DNA from: Psammoneis japonica
Lineage: Eukaryota
Assembly: GCA_008632985.1 (NCBI GenBank)
Contig: QPGO01000160.1
Location: 1-64,000 of the forward strand
DNA length: 64,000 nucleotides
Direction of reading: 5' to 3'
Within the stretch, counting starts at the first letter, position 1. Each line of letters begins with the position of its first letter. The notes beneath the pieces are model-generated. The model saw nothing but the letters and a program-made list of their open reading frames with translations. It made no database searches and was not told the origin of the DNA. Positions 23,401 through 61,524 of the stretch are shown one piece after another. Both the position numbers and the translations under genes were made by a program.

Positions 23401-23654
23401 TTGCGCGTTTTTTGTTTTCACCCCGAGTGTCCCATGCTGCTGCAGCAAAGCAGATGCTTGTGTGTGTCAAAGCTGCTGCTGCTGATCAAGCCTGCACAAG
23501 ATCATCCAGTTGACTGTCATGTTGATTCTGACTTTGTGGGCTCATTCAGTGTCGAAGATGGGCAAGACCCAATTTCAGTCAAGTCCAGGACTGGATGTCT
23601 CATTTGGTGTTCCGGCTGTCCACTTGTGTGGGTGTCCAAGCTGCAGACTCTTGC

Positions 23655-24013
23655 ACAGCATTGTCAACTGTGGAAGCATGCATCTGGCAGTCAATGTCTG
23701 CACTGTCCCAGATGATTTTTGCAACTTGCACACCAGCCTGCACTTGTGCCCAGTCAGAATGAAAGAGCCAGCCCCACTCATTCCCACTGATGCAGGTTGT
23801 CATGATGCAGCAGGCCACAGAGCAGGTGGCAAAGTGATGCAACAATCAAGTGTCAGCCATGTGTTGAAAATAAGATGCATCATTGGCCACTGCATTGCAT
23901 GTGCCTTGCAAGCAGCTGTGCAGGCCAAGGCACCGGTGGTGGCATGCTTGGCATTGCAGCAGGCAAGAGGCTGGTTTGATGGTGGTGGCTGCTCCTCATG
24001 TTGCGCTGTCGCA
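23655..24013 (+). mobile_element. Insertion in Copia RNase H containing a Ngaro/DIRS-type RT-RNase H fragment
   Basis: DDFCNL...GCHDAAGHRAGG aligns with DDFRDL...GCHDAAGHGAGG of the Ngaro element at ~58840-58960; Copia frame resumes at AMHDLIPI. Confidence 0.65.
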
Positions 24014-24339
24014 GGCCATGCATGATCTCATCCCCATTTGTTAATTTCTGAAGGAGCTCAACTGCAGCGCATTCTGAAAGTGGCCACAACTCACTCCAAG
24101 GCTTTTGAGCTTGCCAACCAAGGCACCAATGACTCACCTGTCAAGCAGAATGTCCTGCATGCGTCTGTTGTGTGCAAAGACAACACCACACTGTGTGCCT
24201 CAAGTTTGCACATGTGCCCAAGTTGTCTTCACAAACCAGCACATTGGCATCCCTCATCACTGGTTTAGGACCAAAGTTGAACAATTGGAGATCGATGTCC
24301 AACCTGTCAGCACTCCAGAGCAACTGGCCAATCAGCTCA

Positions 24340-25560
24340 TGTGTGTTGACATTGTTGCGCTTCTTGCACACAAAACCTGTGTTGATCTGCTGATGTTGTG
24401 CATGTGAACTCAACAAGACACAGGGCAGCACCAATCTGAAAAAAATGTGCTTCACTGTGTTAAAAAAAACCATGACAATCCTCCACAATGACTGAAAATC
24501 TAAGAAGATCAAGCTTCTTGTCAAAAACTCTAGTTGAATGCTCAATCAGTGCTTTGTCAATGTGATCGAACAAGAAAATGCCATGACAGCTGCTGCCATG
24601 AATGGACCCGTTCATGCACAAACAACTGTCATGTCTGCAAAGGCAAGAATGTGGAGACAGGTCAATGCGACTGCGCTTGATGCAATCAAGTTGTCAGGTT
24701 TTGATTTTTTGTTGTCACTGTGGCTTGTGATGACCATGTTGACTGATGGCATTTTTGACATCTTCATTTCACTTGCTCAGATTTTGCATTGGGGTTCACT
24801 TGCTCAGATTTTGCATTGGGGTTCTTCACAAACCATGCATCTGCAGACTTGAGGCCAAATCTTTCACAGCAACACATGATCTGATGTCACACTGAGGTGG
24901 TTCTTTGGTGTGTGCTCAAGGTTGTTGCTTGGTTGACAGTCAAGAGCCAAGAATGCAAGATTTTTGGTCACGTCAACAATGACAGCAAGGCTTGCCCTCC
25001 ATTGTGATGGAGTGTGCTGACTGCAAAGAAGGCTGTGTGTGCAAATGTCCCGCTGATCTTGTCGCAAGCTGAGACAATGACGACGCTGGTGGGGGTCAAT
25101 GTTTTGCACAACATTGTTGGTGCTGCATCTCACAGTGCCTCACCCCATTGTCTGCAGCCCTTCTCCGCAACTTGCTCTGTGTTTCTTTGCTCTTTGAAAT
25201 GGATTTGGGCCATTGTGGCAAACCACAAGAGTTGAGAACAATGCCTTTTGGTGCCTCATGTTCTGCAGAATTTTCATTTGCCAGTTTTACATGCTGCAGT
25301 CTTGCTGCATGTTTCATCGTGCGTCTTTCTGCTCTCTCCGCAACTCTTGCCAGTGGGTTGAACGTTGGGTGCATTTCTTCTGACCTTCGCTGGCGTTGTC
25401 ATGAGTCTTGGGTTGCCGCGAGCAATCGCAAAATGGACAACGACGATTGTTGCTGACAATGTTGTGGTGTCTCTCTGGCCAGCAGCTCTGGCTAGAGCAG
25501 CAGTGTAAACAGTGCTGCAGCATGTGGCATCCTCACCGACCTCGACATGAGATTTTGACA
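24340..25560. mobile_element. Decayed unclassified repeat relic; contains a 27-bp tandem duplication at 24768-24821
   Basis: TA-depleted up to a sharp boundary near 25560; TTCACTTGCTCAGATTTTGCATTGGGG x2. Confidence 0.45.
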
Positions 25561-39200: not shown

Positions 39201-41000
39201 CGGTTCCGCACCATCGCGAGGCGCCAAAAGAAGCTATTTCGCATGGCCAACCAAGCCAAGCTTCGCTCCTTCCGCACTGCACCTCGCCACAAGTGTGGAC
39301 ACAAAGTTCCCCAAGAACTACAAACACGCCATGTCACTAGACGAATGCAACGGCAACCGCAAGTGGGGAGACGCAACTAATCTCGAGATGGACCAACTCG
39401 ACGAATACGAAGTCTTCCATGACTGCGGGCCCTTCAAGTCTTCCACTCCTCCTGCGGGACACAAGAAGATCCGAGTGCACCTGGTGTGCGACGTGAAACA
39501 CGACGGTCGCCACAAGGCACGACTCGTAGCCGACGGGCACCTCACGGACGTACCTGTCGACAGTGTCTACTCCGGAGTAGTCTCCCTCCGTGGCCTTCGG
39601 CTGATGATTTTCCTGGCCGAACTCAACGAGTTGGAGACATGGGCCACCGACATTGGCAATGCCTACCTTGAAGCCACCACCAAGGAGAAGCTTTACATTG
39701 TAGCTGGACCCGAATTCGGCAAACTCGAAGGACACATCCTTGTCATCCACAAGGCACTGTATGGACTGCGCAGCTCCGGTCTCCGCTGGCACGAGCGCTT
39801 CGCCGACTGCCTGCGAGCTGAAGGCTTCTTCCCCTGCCGCGCCGAACCCGACATTTGGATGCGCAGGAACGGCGACCACTGTGAACACATTGCCGTTTAT
39901 GTGGATGACCTCGCCATTGCCATGAAGGACCCTCAATCTTTCGTCGACACTCTCACGGAAAAGCACAAGTTCAAGCTCAAGGGTGCGGGACCCATTGAGT
40001 TCCATCTGGGTTGCGACTTTTCCCGGGAACCCGACGGAACCTTGTGCCTGTCTCCGCGCAAGTACATCGAGCGCATGGTCGACAGCTGCGCCCGACTGTT
40101 TGGGGAGAAACCCACCACCAACGCCCTGTCACCTCTAGAGAAGGGTGACCACCCCGAACTGGACACTTCCGAACTGCTGGGACCCGATGGCATTCACAAG
40201 TTCCAGTCTCTTGTTGGTTCACTCCAATGGGCAGTGTCCCTTGGTCGAATTGACATTGCCACGGCCGTCATGTCACTCTCTAGCTTCCGAGCTGCGCCCC
40301 GTCAAGGCCACTTGGATCGTGCCAAACGCGTCTGTGGGTGCCTCTCCAAGATGCGACACGGTGCTCTCCGCGTTCGCACGGAAGAGCCCGACTATTCGGA
40401 TCTCCCTGCTCCGGCCTATGAATGGATGCATTCCGTGCATGGTGAAGCAGAAGAGATGATCCCAAAGGACGCTCCACCGCCCCTTGGCAAGTTTGTCACT
40501 GCCACCCACTACGTCGATGCAAACTTGTACCATTGCATGCTCACCGGACGCTCTGTCATGGGAATGCTCCACTTCCTCAACAAATTCCCGGCTGATTGGT
40601 TCTCTAAGAAACAAGCCACCGTGGAGACTGCGACCTGCGGGTCTGAATTTGTTGCCGCAAGGACTTGTGTTGAGCAGATTGTCGACCTGCGCATCACCCT
40701 GCGCTGCCTTGGCGTCCCGATCCGTAATGTTAGTTACATGTTCGGTGACAACAAGTCAGTTGTAGACAGTGCCACCATCCCGCACTCCAAGTTACACAAG
40801 CGACACACCGCACTGTCGTTCCACCGTGTGCGTGAGGCAATTGCCTCTGGTTACCTTGAGTTCCACTTCATCGAAGGCTCCCGCAACCCTGCTGACATTC
40901 TCAGCAAGCATTGGGGTCACTCCCAAATCTGGGACCTTCTCCGCCCCCTCATGTTCTGGAACTTCATTCCATCCGAAGTCGAATCTGTTTCTGTGGCTCC
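36261..41000 (+). pseudogene. pol: Copia gag C-terminus plus pol (protease, integrase, RT, RNase H); frameshift near 39310
   Basis: LVDRGANGG; SDRAQ, SEPHQQHQNFAER; DVKHDGRHKARLVA, DIGNAYL, ALYGLRSSG, YVDD; YVDAN, GSEF, FGDN, NPADILSK. Confidence 0.93.
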
Positions 41001-41017
41001 TCAAGCAAACTGGGGAG

Positions 41018-41294
41018 TGACAGGATTTGAACAGGATTTGGGTGCGCGCGAAGCATCGCGCGCTGTTTAGTTTGCCGCGCACAGTTTTGTGTGCTTTGGT
41101 TCCGCGCGTTCACGCGCGATGTAGTTTGCTTTCGAGCCACAAGGCTCACAAGAATGATGACAGCAGCCCGATCATGCCGACTTGCACGTCCCTCGGCTCC
41201 TGCAACGGTCTCTGAGCGGAGACTCATCTGCCATTTAGACAGCAGCAAGGAGTCATTGTTTTGAATTCTTGCCATTTGCCTTCAATTTCTGTCA
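41018..41294 (+). repeat. 3' LTR
   Basis: Direct repeat of 34351-34627, preceded by PPT and followed by TSD. Confidence 0.95.
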
Positions 41295-41799
41295 CTCATG
41301 ATGGAAGTCATTGCACCAGATGTGGCGCGGCACATTGTGCTCTGCTCTCTCCAGCAGGGGCACAGCCAAACAGGAGTTGTCCCCTTTTGTGCTGTCACAG
41401 ACTTTGGCTTTCACACACCAACATTGACCAAGGGCTCAATTTCATCTGCACGGGTTGCTGAATGTTGCACTCATCTTGTGTCATGAGATCTGGCAGATGG
41501 CCGCATGCCAACAGGAGGACAGGGCCCTGCAAAGCTGATGGTCATGTTTGCACATTTGTGGCACTTGTGTTTTTGGCATCTGAGGAGCTCTTCTTGTTGC
41601 AATGGAAAGTCTTTGGAAAAAATTCAGTCAGCTTGGCCTTGTCTCAAACCAAAAACAGTCTGAACAGGGCAAAGAAATGAGCACCTCATCACACAAAAGT
41701 TGCAGAACAACAATTGTGACTGTCTCCAAGCATTGGCTTTTCTTGTGTGGCCATGAGATGGGTTTTCAATCCTGGTTTTGTGACTCTTTGGCATGCCTG

Positions 41800-42990
41800 C
41801 ACCACCGCAACTGAGACTGTGGATGATGACACCTGAGCTTCTGTCATCCCATCGTGGCTTGTGCTTGACTCAATCATTTCTGCCCTTGACTGTTGCACCA
41901 TTGTTTGCAACAAATGCCTCTCACACAAGGAGATGCTGACAGACACCAACAACAACCTTTGGATGAAGCTCCATGCAATCACATCAACAAGGAAAAGAGC
42001 AATGCCCACCACCCCTGCCTTGTGGAGAGACAAAGCTCTCTCTGGCTGTGCATTTCAAAAACAACCAACATGGATTTGTTTTGTCATTTGTCAGTGGACA
42101 GGCCTCCCTGGCAAGAGACAAACCCTCCAACCACCAAGACAAAGCCATTCATGATCATGCCTTGGAGGTGATTTGTTTGTGCAGTGAACTCTCTCCAAGA
42201 CCAACACTGCTGTGTGTTTGGGCTGCATTCTGTGTTCATGGCTGCCTGGGTGTCAACTCCTAGAGTGAGCATTGGTCAGGTGGACATGTTCCCACCCCAG
42301 GTGATGCACAAGTGACAATCCATTTTGAACACAAATTGTGTGTTTCTTGTGCATGAGCATTTTCACATTAAAACACACTTGCACAGGTGAAAAGTGAAAA
42401 AAGGTTTTTACGGTGGCACTCAAGTCCTCATCATGGGATGCACATGATGTGTTGCAAATTCCTGAGCAGACTCAGCACTGATTGTGCAACAGCAGATTTG
42501 GTGCAATGATGAGAAGCTTTCACAGGTGTGGCAGAATGCCAATTTTACTTCATCACAAGTGACCAATTTGTGTTGACATGGTGAAAATCACCCATTGTGT
42601 TGAGACTTGTTTGTTGCAATAAAAACATTGATGGCACAAAAACAATCATGTTGCAACACTGGCACGAGTCTTGTCAGTGTGTTGCAAACTCTGACACTCA
42701 GGTGAATCTGGGCTTTTGGTGGCAAAAGCTTTGGTTGCAAGTCAGAGGCCACGTGAAATTGTGCAAATGTCATTTTTGTGCATGACTTGGTTTGCACGCG
42801 GCTGGAGCACATCATTGGCAACCAAACAAAGCTGGCAGATGACATGTCTTGGCAATCTGACCCTCACCTCCCTCATTTGGCTTGCACCACTCAGCCAGCA
42901 TCATGTCTGAGGTTTCCTTTTCTGAGGACTTGGACCTTTTTCCTCCTGATTCAAGAGTTTCCACAACTGCTCTCCACTCTCAACTGTTCT
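41800..42990 (+). mobile_element. Decayed DIRS/Ngaro-like RT-RNase H fragment
   Basis: VDDD at ~41820; HIIGNQTKLADDMS...FPFLRTWTFF resembles the RNase H end of YR retroelements. Confidence 0.4.
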
Positions 42991-45970
42991 CTGAGGAGTT
43001 GCTGCCGGTCCCTGTGCAGACCCCAGGGCACACAAAGGACAGCTTCAACACACTGGAGGCCTGTGTTGCATTCTTCCATGAACCTGAAATTGTTGTCGAT
43101 GATGATGGTAGAGCTGCAGCTGTTGTCAAGGATGATGCCCATGATGACTTTGGCTTTGTTCTTCCAGTTGTCCTTCAAGTCATGTGCCATCATGACACAT
43201 GTGGTGGGCCTGTTTGCAACTCCAAAGGGCATGACAATGCACCAACACTTCCTGCCCTGTGGGGCTGTGAGTGCAATTTTGGCAGCTGACAGTGCCCCCA
43301 TCTTATTTTGATGGTGTTGCTGCATGTGTTGAACAGGAAAAAGCTTGAAGCAGAGCTGATGGATGCAGTGTGAGACTGCTTTGGTCATCTGATCAAGATT
43401 GATGCTACCAATGCAGAGTCACCACCCAGATGAGCTCATTGACATCTGTGATGTCTTCTTGACAAGGCTTGGTGGCCACTCACTTGATGTGTTGGGACAA
43501 CATGTCCATTCTCCAGCAGTGTGTCAATTGCATCATTCATGATGGAGGTTTCATGTGGGCTGCATCTGATGTTCTTTGCCATGGTTGGCTTGACAGCATG
43601 CTGGCATTGATGACACATTTGCAGTCTTGGATGGGAGTTTTGACATTTTCTTTGCAGAAACAACACTGTGCTGCAGTTGAGCTTGATGATGTGAGACTTG
43701 ACGTTGTTGTCTGGCAGATTGTCATCAAGCCGCGAACTCTTTTGAAGCTCATTTGTGTCTCAGGCTTGGCCAAAGATGCAAGAAATGAAGTTGGGATCAA
43801 CATCAAGGTCTGTGCACTCTAGACAAGCATTCTTCTCAATGACTTTGCCAACGTGGGCCTTGTGAAGAAGTTGAAAGTCATCTTGGATGTCTGGTGAATT
43901 CTCTGTCTTTCAAAAAGGTTGGGCTTCTTGGCACAACACTGTGGTTTTAGAGTCATGATTTGGCAGCAATTCTGTGATTGCCCAGCAGTTGACCCTGTGA
44001 TGGAGGCATGTTTGGGACATTGACAGTGAGCCAAGTGATGGCAAGGCATGTGGCATGATGTGATGTTGGTTGTTCACAAATGACTTTGACATCATGCATG
44101 ATGCTGCAGTGTGTGACACAACATGGTGGTGCCAACCAGAAGTGGTGGTTGTGGATGGACCAAAATTGAAGTGAACTTTTGGGGAGATTTGAGAGGTCAA
44201 AGTGCCAATTTTGGGTTCTGTGTTGAAGGAGCAGTTCTCAATGAACTTGTTGATCTGGCCTGAATGCTGTTTGGCCACAATGAGATTCAAGCTGGATGCC
44301 AACATGTCACAAGAAATGAGCATTGGAGTGAGGAGCTTTGGAGTCAAGCAAGCCTTGGTGCAGAGCTCCACAGGAAATGGGTTGCAGTCAAGCAGCTCAG
44401 ATTCCTCTGCATTGTCTTTGAAGTCCATGGCCAAGTTGGCTGTGGAGATGAAGCTCATCCCCACAATGCAGCTCTTCACAAAGATGCTCTTTCTAACAGC
44501 AATTTTCAGGAATGTTCTTGGATGCCAATTCTTGGTGTTGTGGGGCAGATGGAACTCCAACACTGCAGGGAGACATTCACAGACATTTTTGTCTGGGTTT
44601 TGTCATCTTTCTGGACCACATTCAAAAGTGCAATGGGTGAGTGGTGATCTGTGGCATGACAGGTGCTCTTGACCAGCTTGGGGTGTGCACCTTTGCAACA
44701 GGCATCCAACAGTGTCAGAGCTGTCAATGATGGCATGGACACCCAGACTGAATGTGCTGTCAGGCAAGCCAAGCTGAAGCATGACATCATGAGGCAAGGT
44801 GTTGTTCACTGGGATGGGAAGTTGAGGAAAGTTGCTTTGTGCAAATTGAAGGACATGCGTGTGGAGAGCAACAACCATCTTGGAGTTGCTGTCACATTTG
44901 TCATTGGAGCTGCCAAGGAACTGCTTGATGGAGTTGATGATTGGGCTGGCAAGCTGATTGTTTCCCCCTGATTTGGACCAAGGAGACAGGAGAGCAGAGG
45001 GGAGCAGGTCACCAGTGTTGACATGGTTTTGATTGCAGCAACAACTGCATGTCCTCTCAGCGTGCTTCTTCACATGCTTGTTGTGAAGTCCTTGTTGCAT
45101 GCTGACTCAGTGTTCTCACAGTGCCCCAGCTCATTGACACAAGGACTGGCAATTGTTTTCATTTTTGAGTCACAGCACAGATGGTCCACAGCTCCACACC
45201 CCCAGCAACCCGACTTGCCTGCAGATTTGCACAGATTCAAAAGCCAAGGCAGTCTTGGTGGCATTGTGAGTGATGATGGGGTTCTTGCTTGTCTTGGTGG
45301 GTTGATGTTTTGGTCATGGTGGCTGCTTTTCAGATGGAGCAGAAGGGTGCTGGGCAGATGGCTGTTGGACAATGGTTGCAAAGCCACATGTCTTGTGGAG
45401 TTTGCCTTGGATGAACAGACAATTGGCAGCAAGATTTGACTTGGTGGTCTTGCCTGCTGCACGCTGTGAAAGCTGCCTGAGTGAGCCTGGTCTGTTCAGA
45501 GCATTGGAGAGAAGCATTTTCCATGTGGCTGCAGAATCCATTGACCTCCATCTTCAGATGGATTTGGGGGTCAAGATTGCTGATGAAAGTGTGCGAAATG
45601 GGTTTGTGATTGTTGCAACATGTTTCTGGCAGGTTTGGAAGAGGAGTCACCAAGATGGTGGTCTGCCGCCACTGGGCCATCCTGAGTGGGTTTGACAACA
45701 CCTGTGCTGTCAAGGCAACACTTGGGGATGATGTTGCCTGTGGCACCATGGCAGGACAACACACCTCAGAAAATTCACTGGCTGCTTGGAAGACTTTTTG
45801 CTGACATGTGGCGAGGTTGTCCATGATGCTGAGATGATTGGCAAGGGCTGGTGGGTGTGCACTGGCCACCACCACCCTCTTGTTGTTGACACATCAAACA
45901 AGAGGCAGCATCCAGCATTGCCTGTGTTGGCAGTGATGCCTGCATGGGATGCGACCATGGGTCTGTGATG
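42990..45970 (-). mobile_element. Decayed Ty3/Gypsy retrotransposon (gag to RT)
   Basis: CWGCGAVDH knuckle; IMNDAIDTLLENGH; HHQNKM...KIALTAPQGRKCWCIVMPFGVAN...IIIDN. Confidence 0.7.
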
Positions 45971-46490
45971 CTCGCGAGGTGAAAGCAACTGTCTCCGGGT
46001 GAACGGAAAAGAGGAAAACCGTTAGAGATTGGCGATTCATGTACCAACGGTTAACGGTTTTCTGGAGCAAGCGTCGATGACGTTACCCTATGATACATAA
46101 GGTACAGTTACGCTTGGTTACAGTAGTGCTAACTGTACTTTAGAATCAGAATAATACCGGTATGTACAGTATGTACCCTTAGGTTGATTATATATTATAT
46201 CACGAGGTTGGAAGGTGGCCGGCGCGACAAGCCTACCGGTATGTACATAACATTTAATATTCATATGTTACTGTACTATAACAGGGACAGTATGGAGTTA
46301 AGGGGGGTCATCCCCGCGTTTATCCTAAAATTACCGTTGCATTTGAATAAGGTTTTTTATAGTGTTTATTTTTGAATACAAGAATTATTCATAGTCACAC
46401 CCGATCGCGCACGAAAACGAGAACCATCAGCACCGCGATCGAAGCACGACGATGATGACAATCATCGATATTTCTCAAAAACGTAGTTTG

Positions 46491-46565
46491 CCGTCTACCA
46501 ACTTTTCATGTATGTACAATCTTTGATACATAACAAGCATAAAATAAATGAGAGTTGGTAGACGG
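46491..46565. repeat. Inverted repeat with AT-rich spacer
   Basis: CCGTCTACCAACTTTTCAT ... ATGAGAGTTGGTAGACGG. Confidence 0.8.
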
Positions 46566-46958
46566 ACCACCTCCGTCACAGACTTATGGCTTGTTGTTTT
46601 CACCACGGTGAAGCACGGTGAAATTCAGGAAAAATCATGCAAAACACGAGCTGTTCGGCCGAATTCGAGCTAAAAAAAGTAGCAACCGACCACCCTTAAA
46701 AGAACAGATCCCCTCACTATTCTTGGTGAGAACAGAAGAGTGCAACGATGGACAGCTTGCCGAGTTTCGTTTTTGGTGTGAAGTGTGTTTTTGTGTGGGA
46801 TGCACACACGAGCTGTTTAGTGTCATCCTGCGCAGTGAGGTGAATTCAAAAAACCTCCGATTTGCACTCGCACTCTCACATGCCAATGAACGAAACGTGC
46901 CGATGGCCGATGCTGCTACGGTACGTTCGTCCTAGCACCCAACACTCTCGCTTCACCC

Positions 46959-48271
46959 ATGGGCATGTCAGGTCTTGACAAAGTTTGTGGCAGACAGAAG
47001 AGCTGCCATGTGATGTGGTGATGTTTCTCATGGAGCAGAAGGCTGCTGGCACACGTCAGAATGTGGACGCGCCTAGCAACACTGGTGAAGCAATTGCGGT
47101 GCAACAACCCATGCGTCATTTGAAGTGTGCGATTGATGCAAATCTCGTGGGATGCAAGTGTGCACACGACCGATCATCATGCACGCCAGACGGGGCTGTC
47201 GAACGAATCGCTCGAGCTTTGTCTGATTCGAGAATTGATGCACACATTGTTTGTGACAACGCCACGGCAAGGCACCCATCCAAGTGAGCCTCGTGCTCTC
47301 GTCGAGCAGAGAGTGCTGAGAAAGCAATGCGTCTCATTGTGAGGAGAGCTGAGCTTCAATCTCTGCCAAATGAGAATGACAACACAGCTGAACACGCTGC
47401 AACAGTTGATGATTTCCAGAAGAAGATGCGAAGCCCAGAAAATGCCATAAAGCGGCTCCAGCTGCCGGAAGACTTTGCAACAAAATTGCAAGAATTTGTT
47501 GATTCGTGTGACTGTAGAGACAAAGGAGTTGTTGCTTTTGAAGTCTCACCAATGCAAGCGGATCCTTGTGTTGCAAAGTTGGCCACTGATGGTGAAGTTG
47601 ACTTTTTGATGTCCGGAGATTCGGACTTTCCCATGTGCATTGGACCAAACGGCAAAAGCGACATGGGTGACATTGTCATGAAAGATGTAAAGTTGGGAAC
47701 CAAAAAGGAGCCAATCCGCAGCTGCAAAGTTTACACTGGTCAGAAGGCCGTCGCCGACCTCATCAGCAAAATTCTCACACCCAAGCTAGGACGTTGTCCT
47801 TTTGATTCGGAGGATGGGCGCATCCCAGACTGTCCATTGTTTGACAGGGTACAAGATCCAATGGAACGTGCATTGTTGGGACCAATGACAGGTTGTGATG
47901 TTTGCCCAGGAGGGATGTCTGGAGTGGGTCCAAAGGCTGCCTCCGTCGTGTTCCAGAAACATTGTGCCAGTGGTTTGTCGGGTTCGGCGCTCCACGATGC
48001 ATTGGCAAATGACATGTCCTCCTTAGCTGGAGCAACATTGAAAAACAAAAATGCCGTGTTGTGCATGGCGGCTGCTCTCATGTTTGAGAAAACCAATGAT
48101 GGATGCGTGTTTCAAGCGCCAAAGGAGTTAGATCGATTCAATCAAGATTTCGCTGATTCTGAAACTATGATCATTGATGGGCCGGCTGTTTCTACATGCA
48201 AAGGTTGCTCGGCAGAGTCATCTCACCCATTTTTAGCAAGAAGCCAAAAGCAACACTTTGTTGTTGCGTGA
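46959..48271 (+). pseudogene. XPG/FEN1/Exo1-family nuclease (N and I regions), transposon-associated
   Basis: MGMSGL, AIDAN, IVCDN...PSK, SPMQAD, SGDSDF, GCDVCPGGMSGVGPKAA; frameshift near 46984 and in-frame TGA at 47285. Confidence 0.75.
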
Positions 48272-49704
48272 AAGAGTGCAGCAATGACAACACGAACTCA
48301 AAGTTAAGTCGTGCACCAAATTTACCCCCGAAATTAAAAGAAACCGCAACGCCTGCAAAGTGGATGACTTGCCAGCAAAAAGTCTTCCGACGACGAGAGT
48401 GGATGGACCGACTCGGCTACGGTCGGTTTTGCACAAGTTCCGACCTCAGGACATGCGACAAACATCCAATGGAAATGGTGACAGGTAAAAGAACCAAAAG
48501 CTCAAATAAGGTGATGTCCATTCCTCCATTCCAAGCTCCAGTGCAAGTTGGGGAGAGGAGTCATGACACGCCGGCAAAAACAATGTCGAACGGAAATGGT
48601 GCGGAACGAGAGATCTTGCGTCACGCAAAGAGAATGAGCATGGAAGAATCAAAGCTGTCCTTGCCGACTCGTTTAGCCATGGCAAGAGAAGGCACCAACC
48701 ACAGTGATCTAAAACAATCAGTGCCGGACCCACAGAAAATGGACCCGAGAAGCCTTGCCAATGAAACGCCGAACTCTCCGAAAACATCACTGCGAGCCCT
48801 TGCACCAAAAGAAGCAAAGCGACGCACCGGATTCAGAGATTTAAAACATTTGCTTCGGCACACCAATGTCATTTATGCTGGAGACTTTGACAAGATGGCG
48901 AAGACTGTGACGAAAATGACTTGGCTGGAAGAGCTGTCACTGTGCTTCGAGTTCACGTACGGCCGAAGCAAGAGCCGATCGCAAGACTTTGAATCTGAGC
49001 ATGACGTTGGGCACAGGGTTCTCATGAAAGCCCTTGAGTTCAGGCTTAAAGTTGAGCTTGATTGTCGTGCTCGATGGCCCATGTATGCCTCCCATGCAGA
49101 GGATGCAAAGTTCAGAGACGAAGCATGGAACAGACACTTCGACCAAACGACTGGACCTCGGGTGGTCATGCACGACGCGTCAAACGCACCTTTGCCCACC
49201 CCATCTTCAGGTGACATGAACCGTGCCCTGTGTAATTCCTACTACAACATGTGCTGTGGAAAAGCTGGCATTGCCGCCCAACTCTGTTGTTGGACATTCG
49301 GATTGCCTCTTGTCGCGGGTCACAGTGACGACGACAGACTCATCAAGGATGCGAGGATGCTGGAACTGCAAAAAGTCTTCTCCGAAACAGACCCTTCTTC
49401 AGACATGCCATTTTTGAACATTTTTGATAAAGGACATCACCTAACTTTGGAAGCTCAGACGTGTGGTCAATTGTGCCTGCGTCCTGATGATGCGGATGAG
49501 ACGTTCGGTGGCGACAAGGTTCTCAGAACGGGGTGCATCGCAGTGACTAGATCAGGGAATGAACGAGCTGTGAATCGTTGCAAAATGTCTTGGTTCATCA
49601 AGAGAGGGTGCGTTGATCAGAAGCGTGGGAACATCGGTTTTCTGTGTGATGCATGGGAAAGTTTCACGTTTAGAGTCAACTTCATGTGCAACAAGTTCCA
49701 ATGA
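48240..49704 (+). mobile_element. THAP-like domain plus PIF/Harbinger-ISL2EU-type DDE transposase
   Basis: CCVKECSN...P...W...CDKH; VMHDASN, NSYY, GHSDD, IFDKGH, IAVTRSGNERAVNRCK; TIRs not found. Confidence 0.75.
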
Positions 49705-49991
49705 GGATTGAGCGGGCAACAATTTGGCTGCAAATTGCAGCCGACAATCACGAAACAAATCTTACCTCTACAAATGTGACGATGTAGGTGTATACATGTG
49801 GCATTGTTATACGAGGAAATAATGCTGTAGTGAACATAATGTTGGAAACAGCATCAAATTGTAGCCTGCTGTTTAGCATCGTTGTTTCTCGTTGTGGTTG
49901 AGATGTGTCTTGGATCTTCGCCATCTCCGTATGGTGCTACACAGAATTACGTACGTAGAATGGTACATGCGTTTGTACCGGCATACCAAAA

Positions 49992-52900
49992 ATGAACTCG
50001 ACAAGCTCTGCTGCTGAATCAAGCCCCATCATCAACCATGGCAAGAGTCATAATCGATTTGTGTCATCGACAGCAACAGGCAATGAAGTGCTCCGTAGCA
50101 AGTGCAACGATGCCTTTCGACTACTCTCCAAGTATCTGCTGCTTGGCTGTAATGTAGGTGCCTGGTGCTACACGAATGGTATGAATGGCATCGCTACGCA
50201 GTCCTTTGCGGCTAAAATGGGAGACCGTCATTCCATGGCCCTAGAGAACTATGTGGCAGTGACATCCATTGTGACTGCCGCACAATTGGGACTGGGTGCG
50301 ATTCTTGGATTGGTAATCATTTGGCTTATGCAACGACTGCAATGTTGGGAGAGGCCAATAAAATCGTATCAAACCACTGATCAGGAATCTGCACTGTCCT
50401 TGCTATCTTTACTGCACAGTTGCGGTTCTCTTTTTACCAATTTGGGCTTCATGTTTGGTTCGGCGTCACTTGTGCAAATTTTGAAGCTTCTGGAGCCTTT
50501 TGAAACGCTCGTTTTTAGTCGAACGTTGCTACCGCAAGAGACATCAATCTCTTTTGGACTTATTGGCAGCATGGCATTGATTGTTGGTGGAGCCGTCTCG
50601 CTAATCACTGCAAGACCGAGTTCTCCACAAACTCTTTCAATGTTGTTTGCCATACTTTCCGGTTTGAGTCTCTCCCTACGAAACGTGCTACAAAGAAAAA
50701 AGCATGTATCTGAAGCAAAGACCACGGGTTCTTCAAACACCAGCAAAGTGCAGCGGGCAGTGTATCAGTTTCATCGAATCTCATTGGAATCGTTTGTCGT
50801 CATGGCGGTCTTTGCTTTCGTGTGGAATGGATTCTTGGCCTTTGCGTCAAAGCGATTCCGAACAATCCTTTATGGCTTTTCGAAAAGCGATTGGGGTTTT
50901 CTGATGTGGCATCCCTCTTACAATGCCTTTTCTATGATTGTCTTGGGATGCTGTTCGGCTCTCACACATTCCTTACTGAATGTTGGGAAGCGCGTCTCGG
51001 CTGCAGTTATGGCCATTGTTTGGTTCCACGAAAATGTTGGACTTTCCATGGCGTATGGATTTGCTGCTGTTGCCGTCGGTGGCTGCTGGTATGCCATGGA
51101 GTCTAAGAAGCCCAAACAGAGTTGCAACGTCACAATGCACCATCACAATTGGTATAGGATTTTGATTCTATTCACAATTCAAGTTTTGGTCTTGACATTG
51201 GTCTTGACACGCGTGTTCCTTCCAACCGAGGAAAACATGGGAGCAGCTGAGAACCCCTTTCACTTGTTAAGAACAAACGCAAAGACCAGTTGGACGAGAA
51301 ACAACGTGTCCATATTTCTCGAGAATGACGTGTCTTACAATTGTACTGTGAGATTCAAAGACCCTGAAATGTCCCTCTGCTACTTTGTTCCGTACGACAT
51401 GAACTTTGGTGACGCGTTGGGACCGGCGGTCATCCAGAAACTGCTGGAAAACCACTTCGGATGTTCCGCTCAGAATGTTTCCCTTCTCGACTTGGCCCTT
51501 GGGGGTCAAAAACAGCGAAAACATCGCACGTGCCTCTTTGGATTGGGATCTATCTTTCACTACATTAAAACAGGAGACCACATTTGGGGTACCGGCATAA
51601 ATCCAAGGTGGCAAAAGCGATATCCAAAATCTGCGACTCCTTACTCGGTTCGTGGTCCAAAAACAGAGGTACTGGCTCTCAAGCATTTGAATGTTCCCGA
51701 GAGCACTAGTATTGGCAATGGTGATCCTGGTAAGAAGTAATGGAATTCAAAGTAATGAAACGTTTGTTTCTGTGGCATTATTTTCTTATAAGCGTACTTT
51801 GCTTTCCCCCGATTAACAGGATTTCTAATTCCATTCTTGTACAAAGAATATAAACGAAAGAATGCGACAAAGTCTTCGGCGCATCGCATGTGCTTCGTTC
51901 CTCATTATCACGACCGAAAAGAAAAGGCGGTTTTGTCTCCTGGAAACGTTCAAATTATTTCGGTCCAACAAGACTGGCGTTCTGTTTTGTCGCTCATGGG
52001 AGAGTGTGATTTTGTGGCGTCATCGTCTCTTCATGGGATAATTATTGCCGACGCTTTAGGAATCCCCACGATGTGGTTCCAATTCTCACGGTCAAAAACC
52101 GCCACCACAGCAGGCGATTTCAAGTATCTCGACTACTTCGAGAGTATCAACAGATCCGTGGCAAAACCTGAGAGCGATTTTTCGAACATTTTTAATGTCG
52201 ATCTCTATCAACCTTTTATTCCACTTTCGGAACGAAAGTTGATTGCCCAGCGGACTGCAGAGTCCTTTCCAATGCATTTGTTTGAATCGATTCCTTGGCA
52301 TTCTTTTGATTCTGTTTCAACGCACTTGCCTGTGTCGTTATCAGCGGATTCTACTCCATCAAACATCAATGCCAATCGGACGCTGGTTGTGATTCTGGGT
52401 AATTTACGAGGCGGCGAATCGGCATGGCAAACCTTGTACAAGCACGTACTGGACAAAAACAATGCCGATTTGGCGCTGTCGATCGGTGAAGTGCCACCCG
52501 AGCAACGAAATTCTTCATTGTACGCAAGAGCCAAGTATCTCTGGGAATTTCGGGAATATGATGATTGGGCTGACCTGAGCAAACTGGATCCCTCCTTGAT
52601 GTGGGTCCCGAAGTTCAGTGATTTTGGAGGAGTGACTGACCGACATGTGGTCTGCAACAATCGTCAGATTCTTAGGGCTTTGGACATTCTTCCACACATG
52701 ATAGAGCATCCAGAGCTTTATATTGCAAACATGAAAACTACAAAGGATAATCCCGAAAAGTTACTTTTGAAACGTTGGGAGATGGAGAATCTTGTGCCCG
52801 AGTTGAAAAGGTTTGATCGCACGTTTTTTACGTGCGCAAGTGAAGGTGATAAGACACGGTGGCAAACCCCCACAGATTACACCGTAGAGGAAGGTGTTCA

Positions 52901-53000
52901 TCTCAAGTATGGGATTGAATATAAAGCAGCAAAGTGCACCTGCAAAGGGGGTGTCGCGAAAAAACTTTTTGCACTTGAAATCGTGTCATGCAAAAAATGA
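49992..53000 (+). CDS. Fusion: TPT/nucleotide-sugar-family transporter, polysaccharide pyruvyltransferase and an unassigned C-terminal domain
   Basis: Multi-TM N-half with KLLEP and THSLLNVGKRV; NFGD, GLGSI, IWGTG, SVRGP, GDPG, PHY, SSSLHGIIIADALGIP; frame-preserving intron 51730-51819. Confidence 0.85.
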
Positions 53001-53249: not shown

Positions 53250-54887
53250 GTCTAAAATGTCTGGCTGTCATCCGCACACAGTCTTACCATGTGAGTTGTT
53301 TTTGTTGTCACAAGGTGGAGGAAATTTGATGCCACCATGCTGGGCAGTTATTTTCACTTTCCATGCTGTTTGTCATGTTGGGCGGTTGCTTCTCCAACAA
53401 CTGATTGAGCAAATGATTCCCATGGAGTCTGCGCAACAATGCTCGTTTTTTTGTTTTTTTGCTGATGCCTCGGCGGGGGCAAATGTGCGCTAGAACATGT
53501 TTTTTGGCAACGTGCAAATTGACAAAATTTTCCATTTTTTGTGCATCACCGGGCCCTGGAACACATCAACAGCATCCACTCTAACATTGGCACTTGTGAT
53601 GGCGTCGCGGCTGGTGGTGCCATGCTCAACTGCCAAGCGCTGCTTTGCACACAAAAAATCTGTGTGGGCATCGTCAACAACTTGTTGGAATTCTTGGAGC
53701 CCCTTCCATGGTGCAAAGTGGCAACATTTTGCAGCTGCAATGACAAAACAACATGGGAACCACCTCACATCTCAATTTGGTGCTCAACAAGCAGTGCTTG
53801 CAAGCAGGTGCTCAAGTTGGGGTGTGGAGACTTTCATGTGGCAAAATTGGCCAAAGAAAAGAGTTGGCAGAACATGGGTCATCTCAGTTGTTGTTGGTGG
53901 GGTTTGATTGTGAAAACTCTGCACCACCTGCTGAACAGATTCTGCTGCACAAATGTTGTGGTTGACACTTGACCTTCAATCAAGAGCTGCCCAAGAGCCA
54001 TCATTTGTTTTGCCCCAATTTGTTGGCAGGGATGGCAGGGCTTCATTTTGAGAGAGGAGGAGCCATCTTCTCACAATTTTTGCAGCAATTGGTGGCAAGG
54101 ATGCAACAAAAAGTCCCAAATGTGTTGCTCAGAGTCAGTTTGTGATGCAAACCTGTGGTTCACAGTGTGCTTGCGCAGCTGCAAACCAGACATTTTTGCA
54201 CACAAAAATGAAAGAAAAACTCAGTGTTTTGCATCTCCATTCAGCCCCAGAGGTGAAGAGCACATTTGTTGCAGGACATCATGTTGTTGAGAATTTTCTG
54301 GTTGAGGCTGTTGGGAGGACAGGAAGCTGCCGCTTTTCCACACAGCTCAGCAACACACAGCTTGAGTTGTCACTTTGGAAGCGCAGATCTTTCTGTGACA
54401 GCACCTGTTTTTGGTTTGGCAACTTCAGGTGAGTGACAAAAAAGCACTCAAAATGACAGTGTTGAAAATGCTTTGGCTCTTGTGTGCAGGTTGAAGTGTC
54501 TCACCTCACTTTGGAAATTGTTGGAGCTGTGTGCCACAAAGTTTCAATTTTTTTTGTGTCTGCCACCGCAAATTCACATGGCAGCAAGACAAGTTGTGCT
54601 CTCTCCAGGCAGTCAAACAGGAATCACCCCCTTTTTGTGCCATCACCTTGGCCTTCACCAATGTAATTGACTGGGGCATCATTTCCGTCTGTGCTGGTTG
54701 CTGCTGAACGGTGAATTTGTGCAGTGCCATGAGATCTGGTGGATGATGGTGCATGCCAACAGGAGGACCGGGCGCCTTCCTGAGCCACCGGTCATGCTCA
54801 CAATTGCATGTGTTTGGCATCTGAGCTCTTTTTTGAAAACCTCATTGTTGCAATGGAAATCTGATGGAACAAAATCATCCGGTCTCA
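53250..54887. mobile_element. Old unclassified repeat relic, homologous to 33240-34350 and 41295-41660
   Basis: Collinear shared sequence blocks; TA/CG-depleted. Confidence 0.65.
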
Positions 54888-55099
54888 CTGGCCTCGAAAA
54901 GTTGGTCATCGGTGCCCCACAGAAAAACCGTTGAAAATGACCCTCTGACCTCGGGACAATTTGTTTCCCTGTTGCACCTCTCATTCTTCCGAAGAGCAAA
55001 GCAACAACCAGATAGTTTTAATCGCTGTCTTGAGGCTGAGGATGCCTTCAGCCGCATTGTTTGTTGTGTTCGCTCACAGGGATGCCACATTTCATTGTG

Positions 55100-57308
55100 G
55101 CAAATGTGCCACCACCACCAGGAGCAGGACAAGGACCGCCACCTGCGGTGAATCCGAATGCAGGAGGTCAACCGGCACAAGCCGCAGCACCTCACGCAAA
55201 CGTTGCACCACAACTGGGGGCAGCCCAACCAGTGCCACCAGTTCATCCGGTGCAAGGAGGAGCTGGAGCACTGCCCCCACCGGTGCAGCCAGTTGCTGCG
55301 CCGCCCCAGCAGCCACCGACAGTGCCCTTGCCAATGCCGGTCATCGACACATGCCAGGCATGCCACTCCACGATCAACGATGACCCGCATGGCGGTGAAT
55401 GTGCCAACCCGATGTTGGATTTTGCGGCTGTTGTAAATGGCAATGCAAGGCACGGGGCGAACGTGCTTGTGGAACGAGTCGCATCTGCCTCGACGCACAA
55501 CATGCCCATGGCTGTGGTTCTCCACTGCTGCGACCCCAACGCAGACGCGGCGGATCCGGGCCGCATTCAAGTCTGCCATCGCATTGCTCTGCATCCAACC
55601 ACGGTCGCAGGGCCACCCCAGCCATGGGATTGTGACCTTCCCGGATGCGCATTTTGCGTTGGCCGCACCAGGGACTTGGGTTCCTGCTGATGCGGCTCTA
55701 GCAGCTCATGTCACCGCTGTGCCCGATGGGTTGCACCCGGCTGCAGCAGCGCACGATGCAGACTCAGAGGAGGCACGGACGAGAGGAACCATGTTCGTGC
55801 CCTTCAATTTGGTCAAGCTGCTGCCACCAGAGCCGTTGACCCCCAAGGAGGTGTGCACTCACGCACATGGAGTGCTTGACGCAGCCAACAAAGTGGCCAA
55901 TTGCCGGGCACTTCTGGATTTTCTTCGCATCGCATGTGTCGCGACACAAGCCAGTGGCGAGGAGTCGGCGGTTTGCATGGAGTGGCCTGCTCTCCCGCAA
56001 CCGCCTGACGAGCATCTGATTCGTTTCTTTGATCAACGCGTGCAGCATGACCTTCCTGGATTCAAGGCACCGGCTGCACCGGGACCGCAGTTCCAGCCGG
56101 TCATTCGTGCTGTCGACGACCTCACCGCGGAACAACGGCAACAGCGTTTGGATGCCCAAGCCCACCAACAGGCTGCCGATCGCGGAAAGATGCCGGTGCA
56201 GTTCTGCGGAGAACACAGCATCATAAAACTTGTGAGATTGTGCCAGGTGCATCAAGAGAATCAGCTTCCGCCCTTTTGGCAACGTTTGGCCACTGCACCC
56301 AAGACTGGGCAGATCGCCACAGTGCAGAATGCTGTGGACGAGCAACGCCAGGCACAGAACGTGCACTTTGAGGTCCCAATTTCAGTCAGCATGGTCACCA
56401 AGCTCATTCAACTCTCATTGGCCGGACATGACAAAGACAATCTCACCCAAGGTGTCAATCCTTTCATTTTCGGACTTGCCACTCCTCAACAGGTGGAACA
56501 GATTGCGCGCCGTGCGGCCATGTGCCACCAGATTCACGGTGGAATGGGCATGCCCTCCCTGTCCGACACTGTGGTTCTTGAAGCACCGGACGACGCGAAG
56601 GTCACCACCACTGTGCAGGCGGTCCAGCATTCGCTTGATGGACTTTGGGTGGTCCTGTCTGCGGCCTCAGGTGCCACCCACCCGGTCGTCCGTTACCTCA
56701 TGGACCTTCACCGCTCTTTGGACGTTTACGTCAATGATCTTGCACTGCAGATGATGCACTGCCCTGCGCTGCCTGCAGATTTCCAGCGCTGTGTCCAGAT
56801 CGAAATCCATCATTGGTTTGAGGATCAAGAATCCATGCATAATCCCGCTCCATTCACGCCCAAGAATGTCATCTACGAGGTGGCCAAGGGTGCCATGAAT
56901 TGGCAGCATCCACTGCCAATCGCCGTCCGACCCCAAGCCCCACCAACATGCGGCCCGACGGGACCGCTTCAGCACTCTGGATCGCCCCAAGCACCTGCAC
57001 CCACATCCGCTGGGCAAGCTCAGACCCCGGGCGACAACTCTGTTGTTCGCAATGAGAACTGCGATGACCGTTTTTCTGCCGTTCGTGACTGCCCGAACGT
57101 GCGCTCATGTGATGTCAAGCAGCGCTGCGCTCGCAACAACATTGCCTTGCCCGTTGACTCGAATGGCACTGCCTGTTGCCTCCCCTGCCACATCAAGGGC
57201 CAGTGCAACACCAACCGTGGTTCCCGCAATGACCATCACGGACGCCACACCGATGCAGAGCAGGCTGCACTCTTAGAGTGGGCCACGGAGCATTGGAAGA
57301 CCGAATGA
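55100..57308 (+). pseudogene. Ngaro gag-like ORF1 with C-terminal Cys/His finger
   Basis: Pro/Gln/Ala-rich start, frameshift near 55630, CLPCHIKGQC...NDH. Confidence 0.7.
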
Positions 57309-59520
57309 GAATTCGGCAGCGGTGTCGGTTCGGGGACCGACTGTCTTTTCATCTGGAACTGGTGATGGCTCCAGACCCGCCACCCCCGCAGGCAGAGAAC
57401 CCATGCGCTCAGCAGAGCCATGGTCGTCCCACCCTTTGTGGGCAAACCATTGCTGGCTCTGAGCTGGACAAATTGGGTGAGCAAATTCTTGAGGACACTT
57501 CTGCACTTCGTCAAAAAGGTCTCAGTTACCTCCTTTGCCATCGTGGGAAGAGAGGAGACTGGGGTCAGCTCTGCAAGGCCGCAGGGCATCCAGCCCACAG
57601 GCTCTTGCGCCACTGCCGAACACGGGGAGCGCCCATCACGGTCGCCGATTCCCCGTGGACGGCCGAAGAGCTAGAAGCAAGCATCGCCAGGGGGCCACAC
57701 AAGTCCGCTTACGAGCACATCGATTTTTTGCAGGAAGACATGCACGACTGCGTTGAGAAAGGTTTTTGGGTTGTGCTGCCGTACGATGAGGTGAAGAGCA
57801 TTCCTGGTCCACGCATTGGCCCGATGGGAGTTGCACCACAACATGCCAGACGGCCCCGTCCCATTGTTGATTGCTCCCACTTTGGGGTCAATCAAGCCAC
57901 GCAGCCCAACGCCCCCATGGGGGCAATGCAATTCGGCTGGACTTTGGACTGCCCACTTTGGCGTGTCCTCCTCGCCAACCCGAAAAAGGGTCGAGTCTAT
58001 CTGATGAAGATTGACCTTTTGGATGGCTTCTACAGAGTCTTCTTGTCTGAAGATCGTGCACCTTTGTTGGGCGTTTCTTTCCCACACTCACCAGGCGAGC
58101 CACGCCTCGTGGCCATTCCGACATGTCTGCCCATGGGATGGACTGATTCGCCACCGATCTTCAGTGCAGGTACAGAGACTGTGGCTGACTTGTCAAATCA
58201 GGCCTTGCTCCATAATGTCACAGCACCGCCACACCGATTGGAGAAATTCGCCGAGAGCCGTCCACCGACACATCAACCGACGCCGCCATCGGACCCTGCG
58301 CTCTCTGTTCCCGTTCCACCCAAATCCGACCCACATCTAAACCACTCTAAACGTCGGCGTTTAGCGTGCATCGACGTTTATGTTGACGACTTTATCGGTG
58401 CAGCACAGGGCGACAAGACCGCCCGCCGCAACGTGCACTGAGTTGTCATGCATGCCATCGACGACATCTTTCGCCCCACCGATTCCCATGACTCGCCCAC
58501 TCGCAAGGAGCCCATGTCCGTCAAAAAGCTCTGCAAGGGCAATGCAACGTGGACCACACAGAAGGAGGTCCTCGGTTGGTTGATCGACACTCAGTCGATG
58601 ACCTTGCGGCTAACACCACGCCGCCGAGAGCGCCTTCGCCAAACACTGCACCAGGACTTTCCCCGGAGCCGCCGCCGCACCACTGTCCTTGATTGCCAGA
58701 AGCTCTTGGGCGAATTGCGTTCGCTCGCTGTTGCCTTGCCCGGAGCCCGAGGACTTTTCTCCGTTCTGCAGGAGAATCTCCGCCACGCTGCACCCGACAC
58801 ATGCCTCCGGCTTGCGGAGAACGTGCGCACCATTCTTGATGATTTTCGAGACCTCTGCACAATGCTGGATGCACGCCCCACCCGCATTCAAGAGCTGGTC
58901 CCATTGGAACCTGCTGTTGGTGGTTGTCACGACGCAGCCGGCCATGGTGCTGGTGGCGTCCTCCTGCCAACTCCCACAGCCACGCCACGGGCCACTCAAC
59001 TCCACACTGGCACCGGACGTGTCCGCCCTCACACATGCCTGGGCCCCATTGCATGGCGCATGCCCTTTCCCAGGGACACAACTGCCAGACTTGCCACCTG
59101 CGAGAATCCCAAGGGTCCCATCACCAACACCAACCTTGAGCTCGCAGGCAGCTTCATTCAGTCCTGCGCCATCGCGGATTGCTGCGACATCAGGGAACGA
59201 ACCTTCCTTTCCCGCACCGACAACCTCGGCACCATGTTTCAGCAACGCAAAGGAGCCAGCACGACCATCAAACCAGCCTCCCATCTCCTCCGGGGCCAAG
59301 CATGCCACCAACACTGTCGCCGTTATGTTGGCCTCCACGACTGTCTCCCCGGCTGCCTCAACGGCGCAGCAGACGATGCTTCTCGCATGCAACGCCTCTC
59401 TGACACTGATTTCTTGCACCATTTTGACTCTGCTTGTCCACAGATCTCCTCCTGGCGAATGTGGACCCCACCACCCGCGCTGCGTTCATTCGTGATCTCA
59501 GCGCTGCGCAGCATGCCGTT
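57278..59520 (+). pseudogene. Ngaro reverse transcriptase and RNase H
   Basis: KIDLLDGFY, LPMGWTDSP, YVDDF, HDAAG, LELAG, TDN, NGAADDASR; in-frame TGA at 58439. Confidence 0.9.
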
Positions 59521-60605
59521 GCCCATGGCGTCACTGCTTCAAGATCCTCCGCCGCCGACACCCACTGGAGTCTCTGGTCCAACTTCTGCACCCAACTGGC
59601 CCTCGATCCACTCCTCGAAGACGTTTCCGACCCCGTCATCTACCTTCAAGTCTTCCCACATCGGTTCCGAACTGGCGCCATCGCCCCCCGCGGAAATCCC
59701 ATCCGCGCACGCACCGCTGAGGATGCCGCATGTTCGGTTGGACAAACGTTTGTGGCAATGGGGACCAAAGACCCCCGACTCACATCCCAAGGCCAATTGG
59801 ACTTCCGCCTTAGCCAACAAATTCGCTGTTGTAAGAAAGAGGATCCTCCACCCGACCGGGTCAAACCAGTCCCCGTTGCAGTTCTCTTTTGGGTGCTCCA
59901 TGCCGCCGCAATCACACCCCATGTTGGAACAAAAGCCATTGCCAGCATGATTGCGCTGGCTCACTTTTTTCTCCTTGGCCTGGTGAATGCACCGCCACCC
60001 CATCTGACACCACCCCCTTCCGCCTCGCTGATGCACGGCTCTCCTCGGGCAGTGTTTACCTTGACATTTGGACAGCCACCGACGCCCAACTCAATGCCGC
60101 CACATTCGCAACGCTTGCATTCACCGATCAAAAGAACGGCGTCCGCGGTGAAGTCATCAGTTTAGGCTGCTCTGACCACCCCCAATTTTGCCCTGTCCTC
60201 GCGCTCATTGAGCGCGTCAAGCACCTTCGTGCTCATGGAGCGCTCCCAGACTCCCTGCTGGGAGTTTGTTTTGCCAATCATCGATGGCATCGTGTTTCAC
60301 TGGTGGACATCTCCTCCATGCTGCGCACCGCCATCGTTGCCATTGGCCCCGCCAACCTGGGTTTCAACCCCACCGACATCTCGGCCCGTTGTCTCTGCGC
60401 CGCCGGTGCCATGACTTTGCTTTGCGCCCTCGTTGACACCGACGTCATCCGGCTCTTGGGCCGGTGGCAATCGGACGAGATGCTTCATTGCCTTCATCTC
60501 CAGGCTGAACCCATCATGTGCAACTTCGCCAGATGCATGTTGGCAGGTGGAGATTTCGTCCTCCACCCAAATGCGGAGGTTCCCGTTCACCCGGAACCTC
60601 CGTGA
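59434..60605 (+). pseudogene. Ngaro tyrosine recombinase, frameshifted
   Basis: HFFLL/PGEC, DQKNG, CPVLAL, SARCLCAAGA, GRWQSDEMLHCLH. Confidence 0.85.
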
Positions 60606-61524
60606 TTCACCACCAGCCCGCTGGCCGGGCCCACCCACCCACCCAAGACTCGTGGCCCGTTCCGACTCCACATCTTCATTGGGAGGCGCTGGCGGCCCTG
60701 CCATCCAGCTTGGGATTTGGAGAGGCGTCATGTGCACTGGTGAAGCACTCTCCACTCCCAACCGCCTGTCCCACTCACCACCTAGCCTCCCAATCCGGGT
60801 CGACCGAAGGACGAACGAGAAAAGCGGCGGCAGCCGCTGGCCTCGAAAAGTCCAACGGACGAGAGGGGCCTGTGACCGTTGGTCATCGGTGCCCCACAGA
60901 AAAACCGTTGAAAATGACCCTCTGACCTCGGGACGATTTGTTTCCCTGTTGCACCTCTCATTCTTCCGAAGAGCAAAGCAACAACTAGACAGTTTTAATC
61001 GCTCCCACCTCTCCCGCCCTCTGGCCCTGCCGTCCAGCTTGGGATTTGGAGAGGCGTCATGTGCACTAGTAAAGCACTCTCCACTCCTAACCACCTGTCC
61101 CACTCACTACCTAGCCTCCCAATCCGGGTCGACCGAAGGACGAACGAGAAAAGCGGCGGTAGCCGCCCAGAAACGTCTACAACAGGCTAAAGAGCAATCA
61201 ACCTTGTCTTATGAAAGTTACAGAACAAAAATCATGAGAACCCTCCAACCATTGAGACAAAGCCATTCATAGTTATGCATGGAAGGTGATGCGTCCTGTG
61301 GAAGAAGAGAAGAATGGAATAACAACCACACGAAAAAGGACCAGCTTTTGCGCAAAGTTGCAATTCAGAGAACGAGTTCTCAACGCACGGGACGAGCTGT
61401 TGCTTTCAAGTCCAGGGACTAGGCTACAAGTGGAATCTAACCGCAAGGGTTGTTTTCAGATTGTGCTTCGCCTCAATCCATTATTGACATTTCTACACCG
61501 CCCAAATCACCATGATGATTATTT

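Follow-up and report, generated by a model that had tools for sequence, protein, structure and literature searches.

The window analysed here, a stretch of 64,000 nucleotides, contains motifs of an XPG/Exo1-type nuclease and of a THAP-DDE transposase in overlapping frames of the same strand, and the question raised is whether the two belong to one mobile element and, if so, what a DNA transposon would do with a 5' nuclease. An earlier note, made from the sequence alone, had proposed such a transposon at 46959..49704. The motifs it named (the XPG N- and I-region acidic motifs, GCD...GVGPK, and those of the THAP and DDE parts) are all found where it placed them, and its interval corresponds to the coding part, but the ends of the element, at 46750 and 50007, had been missed. 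We are highly confident that window positions 46750-50007 hold a cut-and-paste DNA transposon of ISL2EU type, here as a dead copy with an internal deletion; its autonomous form is ~4.9-5.1 kb and encodes one polyprotein. The features, with strand in parentheses, are as follows.

46298..46699 (no strand assigned): high-copy MITE of ~400 bp with a TTAA duplication and GGG termini; a neighbour, outside the element
46748..46749 (+): 5' copy of the AT target-site duplication, abutting the TIR
46750..46777 (+): 5' TIR, first bases GGACAGCTTGCCGAGTT; similarity to the C345 copy begins here and the flanks diverge
46959..48236 (+): FEN1/EXO1/XPG-fold 5' nuclease domain and the first CxxC..H of a Cys8 finger
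47132, 47249, 47273 (+): nuclease motifs IDANL, VCDNA, and HPSK
47555, 47615 (+): I-region motifs QADP and GDSDF
47891 (+): H2TH motif, GCDVC followed by GVGPK
48235..48236 (+): deletion junction, 1615 bp lost, 2-bp AG microhomology, from the C345 alignment
48262..48468 (+): THAP-like C2CH finger, assigned by motif (CCVKEC at 48262, RTCDKHP at 48448)
48781..49704 (+): helical region and PHIS-type DDE core, stop codon at 49702-49704
49174, 49426, 49561 (+): DDE triad D, D, and E, in motifs MHDASN (49168), FDKG (49423), and NERAV (49558)
49981..50007 (+): 3' TIR, truncated by 4 bases at its end, with the 3' AT also gone
49992..51740 (+): host gene with a triose-phosphate-transporter-family domain (Pfam TPT, E 1.9e-19)

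Ends, copies, and target site

A DNA search of the genome yielded one further copy of the coding part, on contig C345 (G000:C345), which is 96-97% identical and interrupted by an extra segment. Similarity between the two copies sets in at window 46747-46750 and ends at 50007, and because their flanks are unrelated they represent two separate insertions; C345 is thus ruled out as an allele of the window copy. The C345 copy is 4878 bp long, opens with GGACAGCTTGCCGAGTT, has GGACAGC termini with AT at both sides, and ends in the reverse complement of its 5' end with one mismatch in 17 bases. Allowing one mismatch, the genome contains 45 matches to this 17-base end, compared with none for the reversed control. 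AT precedes 33 of the 35 distinct TIR ends examined and flanks both sides in 13 of 14 paired ends; eight of the pairs with AT at both sides are non-autonomous and 1505-1513 bp long. Immediately outside the AT, 18 of 33 ends have an A, versus 25% expected (P 3e-4). In a scan of 20 loci, all five family loci with ends matching 15-16 of 16 bases had AT at both sides and spanned 4878-5118 bp. That scan required GG, but a separate end comparison free of the requirement also gave TIRs beginning with GG. The boundaries, the target duplication, and the mobility of the element are thereby demonstrated, and the further copies, TIRs, and duplications for which the earlier note had proposed a search do exist.

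The element inserted at the start of the TPT-family host gene. A paralogue of this gene on contig C46 (491 identities in 597 columns) aligns across the window element and represents a paralogous empty site from which the element is absent. The last four TIR bases were apparently lost, together with the 3' AT and the ATG of the host gene, in a short deletion at an AGCT microhomology. Inside the 3' TIR, an ATG at 49992 is in frame with the downstream host gene and leaves a 582-amino acid ORF open (592 amino acids in the paralogue); judged by sequence, it is a possible transposon-supplied start codon for the host gene. Directly behind this ORF, at 51792-53000, a second one matches the polysaccharide pyruvyl transferase domain (E 5e-8) and may be the following exon of the TPT-family gene.

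Other repeats surround the insertion. The MITE at 46298-46699 sits 50 bp before the element, in what was formerly the upstream region of the host gene; it has 39 further matches among those listed, with TTAA at both ends in 15 of the 16 copies shown, and is Kolobok- or piggyBac-like as judged by its duplication. It was considered as an end of the element and rejected, as it has its own termini 50 bp away. Two diverged copies of another repeat (families D2, D6, D10, and D14) lie 13.25 kb apart at 41363-41626 and 54610-54877.

The polyprotein and its decay

In C345, the nuclease and the DDE core both lie inside a single open frame of 1476 codons (1453 amino acids from Met; P0001), in the order FEN1/EXO1-fold nuclease, Cys8 finger, SWIM, THAP-like finger, and DDE_Tnp_4 core. 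A second family, on contig C28, likewise has one frame, of 1566 codons and 25% identity, and nuclease and then DDE matches follow in the same order at 16 of 20 loci, although these loci were picked from two hit lists in a way that favoured such an order. The window copy is read in pieces: the nuclease starts at 46959 and continues in frames 46979-47287, which ends in TGA, and 47288-48271 (+), the latter overlapping the THAP-DDE frame at 48178-49704 (+). The earlier note had seen the overlap correctly, but it is an artefact of a frameshifting deletion of 1615 bp at 48235/48236. Its suggestion of one polyprotein broken near 48240 was therefore close to the mark. The deletion size is the difference between 4878 bp in C345 and 3257 bp in the window (to 50006), less one indel and five terminal bases. 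Approximately residues 427-964 of the intact protein are missing as a result: the SWIM domain, a short helical domain, and what follows the first CxxC..H of the Cys8 finger. No public contig among those listed bridges the junction.

Two smaller lesions precede the deletion. The TGA at 47285-47287 reads CGA in C345. The other lesion, a 1-bp indel at 46984, could stem from misassembly, because a public contig, otherwise identical, carries an extra G there; the sequencing run behind that contig may itself be the source of the assembly. Overall, the damage is such that the window copy cannot encode the nuclease-transposase function. All copies examined in this genome are mutated; that on C345 keeps its frame and catalytic residues, yet is heavily Tyr-depleted and is probably dead too.

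Much of this decay is of one kind. The TA depletion reported in the earlier note is borne out by an observed/expected ratio of 0.18 in the coding part versus 0.46 in the adjacent host gene. Of 123 substitutions between the window and C345, 121 are transitions, including 34 TG/CA doublets, and where relatives outside this genome conserve Tyr, C345 has Cys or His in 15 of 19 columns and the window copy in 8 of 13. Ratios near 0-0.2, with an excess of TG/CA and in some cases CG depletion, are also seen in window blocks 15000-25500, 41000-46000, and 53300-61000. The TA-poor blocks reflect a repeat-directed mutation process in which TA becomes TG/CA, so that Tyr codons come to read Cys/His and TAA and TAG stops disappear. 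Five frames from a TA-poor block upstream gave no Pfam match.

Domains, relatives, and joint inheritance

The HMM searches that had been suggested gave a mixed answer. Pfam applied to the window frames returned only XPG_I, below cut-off (E 0.01), and nothing for the DDE frame; in the tables shown, single proteins never reached the XPG_I cut-off, and none matched XPG_N. A profile of 78 family members, however, matches Rad2, EXO1 (E 2-4e-7), FEN1, and GEN1 (E 3e-5 to 2e-4). The predicted model of a relative, P0168 (pLDDT 94.7), gave Foldseek E values of 5e-9 for FEN1, in the top row, and 9e-9 for EXO1, and its TM-scores are higher for EXO1 (0.42-0.47) than for FEN1 (0.28-0.36). The domain is accordingly predicted to have a PIN-like fold with H2TH, as modelled on relatives, not on the broken window copy.

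Nucleases of the FEN1/EXO1/XPG type have a seven-acid active site. Six of the seven acidic residues are kept here, and the first I-region Glu, a metal-site position in FEN1/EXO1, is Gln in 77 of 79 aligned relatives. The six other acids and the K/R gateway residues are retained in 56-78 of the 57-79 rows covering each site, despite domain identities of only 17-53%; we take the fold and the conservation of its key sites as shown. The proposed phylogeny against host genes was also informative: in a tree of 23 rows (midpoint-rooted, with element rows chosen by similarity and host labels assigned from motifs), 14 element nucleases form one side of a 100/100 branch, and five host genes plus four other XPG-like loci form the other. 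Against host genes, the family profile scores 69 bits with one EXO1-like protein, 27 with a second, and 22 with FEN1.

There are 25 XPG_I matches in the genome. Besides five host-like genes, they include many loci with EAEAQ/EAD motifs, several of them TA-depleted. These loci (L137-L149, on G000 contigs C3, C15, C29, C31, C80, C87, C105, and C165) fall outside this family; no match to the family DDE profile lies near them, and they are possibly another nuclease-bearing mobile element.

The middle of the intact protein consists of the Cys8 finger, a short helical domain, and a CxC..CxH region. Foldseek found no match for the middle region, but a model of the CxC..CxH region had one match above Z 5, to ZSWIM8 (Z 6.8, rmsd 3.3 over 112 residues, below the safe level of the tool), in agreement with the motif and a weak profile match (E 0.2). 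Pfam THAP matches in relatives are weak and below cut-off (E 0.006-0.5), and HTH_Tnp_4 was not matched in Pfam; Atlas neighbours at 0.94 are animal THAP+HTH_Tnp_4+DDE_Tnp_4 clusters. DDE_Tnp_4 exceeds the Pfam cut-off in four of five new full-length relatives, and the DDE triad is present in all 12 aligned proteins. In the PHIS signature, given as D..K..D..D..P..R(3)E in PMC4122938, residues D, D, P, R, and E are invariant in the same 12; the usual YK lysine position is Tyr, and a lysine lies ~21, not 29, residues before the middle D. Searches of PDB sequences gave only zinc-finger noise with full-length profiles and no solved relative with a DDE-only profile.

Nuclease and DDE parts also co-occur elsewhere, in nine full-length outside proteins of 1446-1964 amino acids, which demonstrates the fusion. 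P0003, P0004, and P0008 are single chains of 1446-1490 amino acids, on contigs of 4.9-5.0 kb and with 2.2-2.6% Tyr; P0184, P0188, P0195, P0234, and P0240 are single chains of 1517-1747; and P0320, at 1964, has an added Ulp1 protease domain. Tyr content is normal in the five outside fusion proteins checked. Seven representatives among the best 150 matches reach at least 1300 amino acids, of which six extend to the DDE core and the seventh ends in an Ulp1 domain. The nuclease-side profile had 138 matches at E below 1e-30 among 50%-identity representatives, and the DDE profile had 118, in a search from the DDE side that covered proteins of up to 541 amino acids; none was found at 2609-5000. Among the relatives, eukaryotic names occur only for proteins of two diatoms, Fragilaria crotonensis and Odontella aurita, and the host here is presumably a diatom as well; another relative, on a 2-kb contig, bears the label of a bacterial MAG. 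Searches of viral contigs, of phages, and, by a weak pattern-based approach, of metagenome contigs confirmed no relative. In one branch of the family (P0320, P0238, P0243, and P0287), an Ulp1 (C48) protease domain sits between SWIM and THAP; a genome search with an Ulp1-bearing relative found only known family loci and separate Ulp1-like matches.

Across 11 full-length proteins, identity is 17-53% in the nuclease and 28-63% in the DDE core, and the two sets of distances correlate (rho 0.45, p 0.0008), a value that leans on one close clade of four. The correlation fits a long joint inheritance of nuclease and DDE.

Role of the nuclease and comparison with known systems

Nuclease activity, its substrate, and its purpose are what we infer, and doubt about the activity arises mainly because of the fixed Gln. 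Our proposal, on which we are evenly divided, is that the tethered nuclease resects 5' ends at transposition breaks, most simply the donor break, and so steers repair to an element-bearing template. The THAP/helical part would bind the TIRs, and the DDE core would excise the element and insert it at AT, with the two strands joined 2 bp apart; these steps draw on family and DDE chemistry, whereas the duplication itself is observed. The nuclease would then degrade the ends produced by transposition, most simply those of the broken donor site, in the 5'-to-3' direction, leaving 3' single-stranded tails that would direct repair to the sister or homologue; repair from that template would restore the donor copy and raise the copy number. 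It would thus fill the slot of YqaJ, the unrelated lambda-type exonuclease of animal ISL2EU. Resection is favoured because 5'-to-3' resection, not flap cutting, is the activity common to EXO1 and the YqaJ/lambda exonucleases, and because the ends and duplication are like those of ISL2EU.

A different role would be in the cutting chemistry itself, the DDE core nicking only the transferred strand and the FEN1-like domain cutting the other strand or trimming 5' flaps; the TnsA-like division of labour in Tn7 is a model for such two-nuclease cutting. We judge this rather unlikely. Fusion would keep the nuclease within the transpososome, and FEN1 was the top Foldseek row, but YqaJ-bearing ISL2EU share the AT duplication and the termini, and lambda-type exonucleases are not known to be flap endonucleases. 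The duplication lengths of AcademX and AcademH, linked to their nuclease or helicase in PMC10045372, also speak for cutting. On the other hand, Spy, the sister group, has mostly one transposase ORF (PMC4122938) and is reported to be active (PMC11304231), so the catalytic core does not require the nuclease, a point that weighs against our own proposal too. A role as a structure-specific DNA binder, with catalysis weakened or lost and ends held or shielded, is improbable: the near-invariant Glu-to-Gln change is what such a binder might exhibit, but a dead enzyme would be expected to lose its sites piecemeal rather than fix one substitution and keep the six other acids and the K/R gateway.

That the coupling is a local accident, through capture of a host EXO1/FEN1 fragment or fusion of two ORFs by an eroded stop, is very improbable and largely refuted. 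The TA-to-TG/CA process acting here does erase TAA and TAG stops, but fusion by stop erosion was rejected because outside relatives with normal Tyr content are also single ORFs; furthermore, the 100/100 branch splits the 14 element nucleases from the five host genes, and both parts lie within one TIR pair in divergent families.

The resection proposal can be widened, tentatively and with considerable doubt, to the idea that ISL2EU-type transposition needs a dedicated 5'-to-3' resection step, provided by two unrelated folds: YqaJ in animals and, throughout a clade associated with diatoms, an EXO1-like nuclease with QAD; here, a single chain would cut, paste, and direct homologous repair of its donor site. 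That one type of transposase has exchanged a 5' exonuclease for an unrelated one points to the activity that matters. Because there is a natural member that has one ORF, apparently no introns, and short, defined ends, the role of accessory nucleases in ISL2EU, Kolobok, and Academ could be tested using a single construct and two groups of point mutations. The family also adds a deep FEN1/EXO1-fold branch with a fixed Glu-to-Gln change, missed by single-sequence Pfam scans, and its ends and domains can be used in annotating such repeats in diatom-like genomes.

The domain shares with cellular EXO1, FEN1, XPG, and GEN1 the fold, six of seven acidic sites, the K/R gateway, and the H2TH motif; it differs in having only 14-18% identity in structural alignments, QAD instead of EAD/EAE, and a clade of its own. 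A precedent for such a nuclease is AcademX, where an XPG domain accompanied by a Cys8 finger forms part of a single long protein, the nuclease lying behind the transposase. AcademX is likewise a nuclease-bearing DNA transposon, but its DDE transposase belongs to another superfamily (Academ) and its duplication is 3-4 bp (PMC10045372), whereas a DDE_Tnp_4 core and a 2-bp AT are found here.

The known ISL2EU elements, as described in PMC4482050 (Han et al. 2015), have an AT duplication within A|AT|T, GG termini, a length of ~4840 bp, and two ORFs, THAP-HTH-DDE and YqaJ; ISL2EU-2_Pxyl starts AT|GGACAAC, similar to the GGACAGC of this element. Likeness thus extends to the duplication, the termini, a length near 4.8 kb, THAP with DDE_Tnp_4, and an accessory exonuclease; the A|AT|T preference is present here, but weaker than the conserved A in that account. 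The differences are that one ORF of 1446-1964 amino acids fills the element instead of two, the FEN1/EXO1-fold nuclease replaces the unrelated YqaJ, and Cys8, SWIM, and sometimes Ulp1 are found in the same chain. A separate YqaJ partner was rejected, as YqaJ has no match in the genome (an incomplete assembly). The named relatives here are diatoms, whereas the 25 families of PMC4482050 are all animal; plants are also mentioned as hosts in PMC4122938 (Han et al. 2014), and one ISL2EU-labelled stretch is given for an oomycete in PMC8204020. PIF/Harbinger proper has the DDE_Tnp_4 core in common, but its 3-bp TWA duplication and Myb/SANT partner (PMC4482050) are not seen here. The element is grouped with ISL2EU and not Harbinger proper because of its AT duplication and GG termini. 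The variant lineage with a 5' nuclease proposed in the earlier note is supported, and we would keep its nuclease activity conditional. Filed by its ends, target, and transposase features, the element works like ISL2EU and is probably a relative, though not a canonical member of the group.

In the literature searched, with Repbase, the AcademH description, and most subscription literature outside its scope, we found no description of an XPG-fused ISL2EU. PMC9587614 lists lambda exonuclease, DEDDh, and His-Me accessory nucleases in KolobokE, KolobokD, and KolobokP, some in the downstream part of the transposase chain, and does not mention XPG. Kolobok differs in its transposase and TTAA duplication but is a precedent for swapping accessory nucleases within one transposase superfamily. 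Accessory nucleases in DNA transposons therefore already have precedents, and, as far as checked, the XPG-fused ISL2EU architecture appears to be new.
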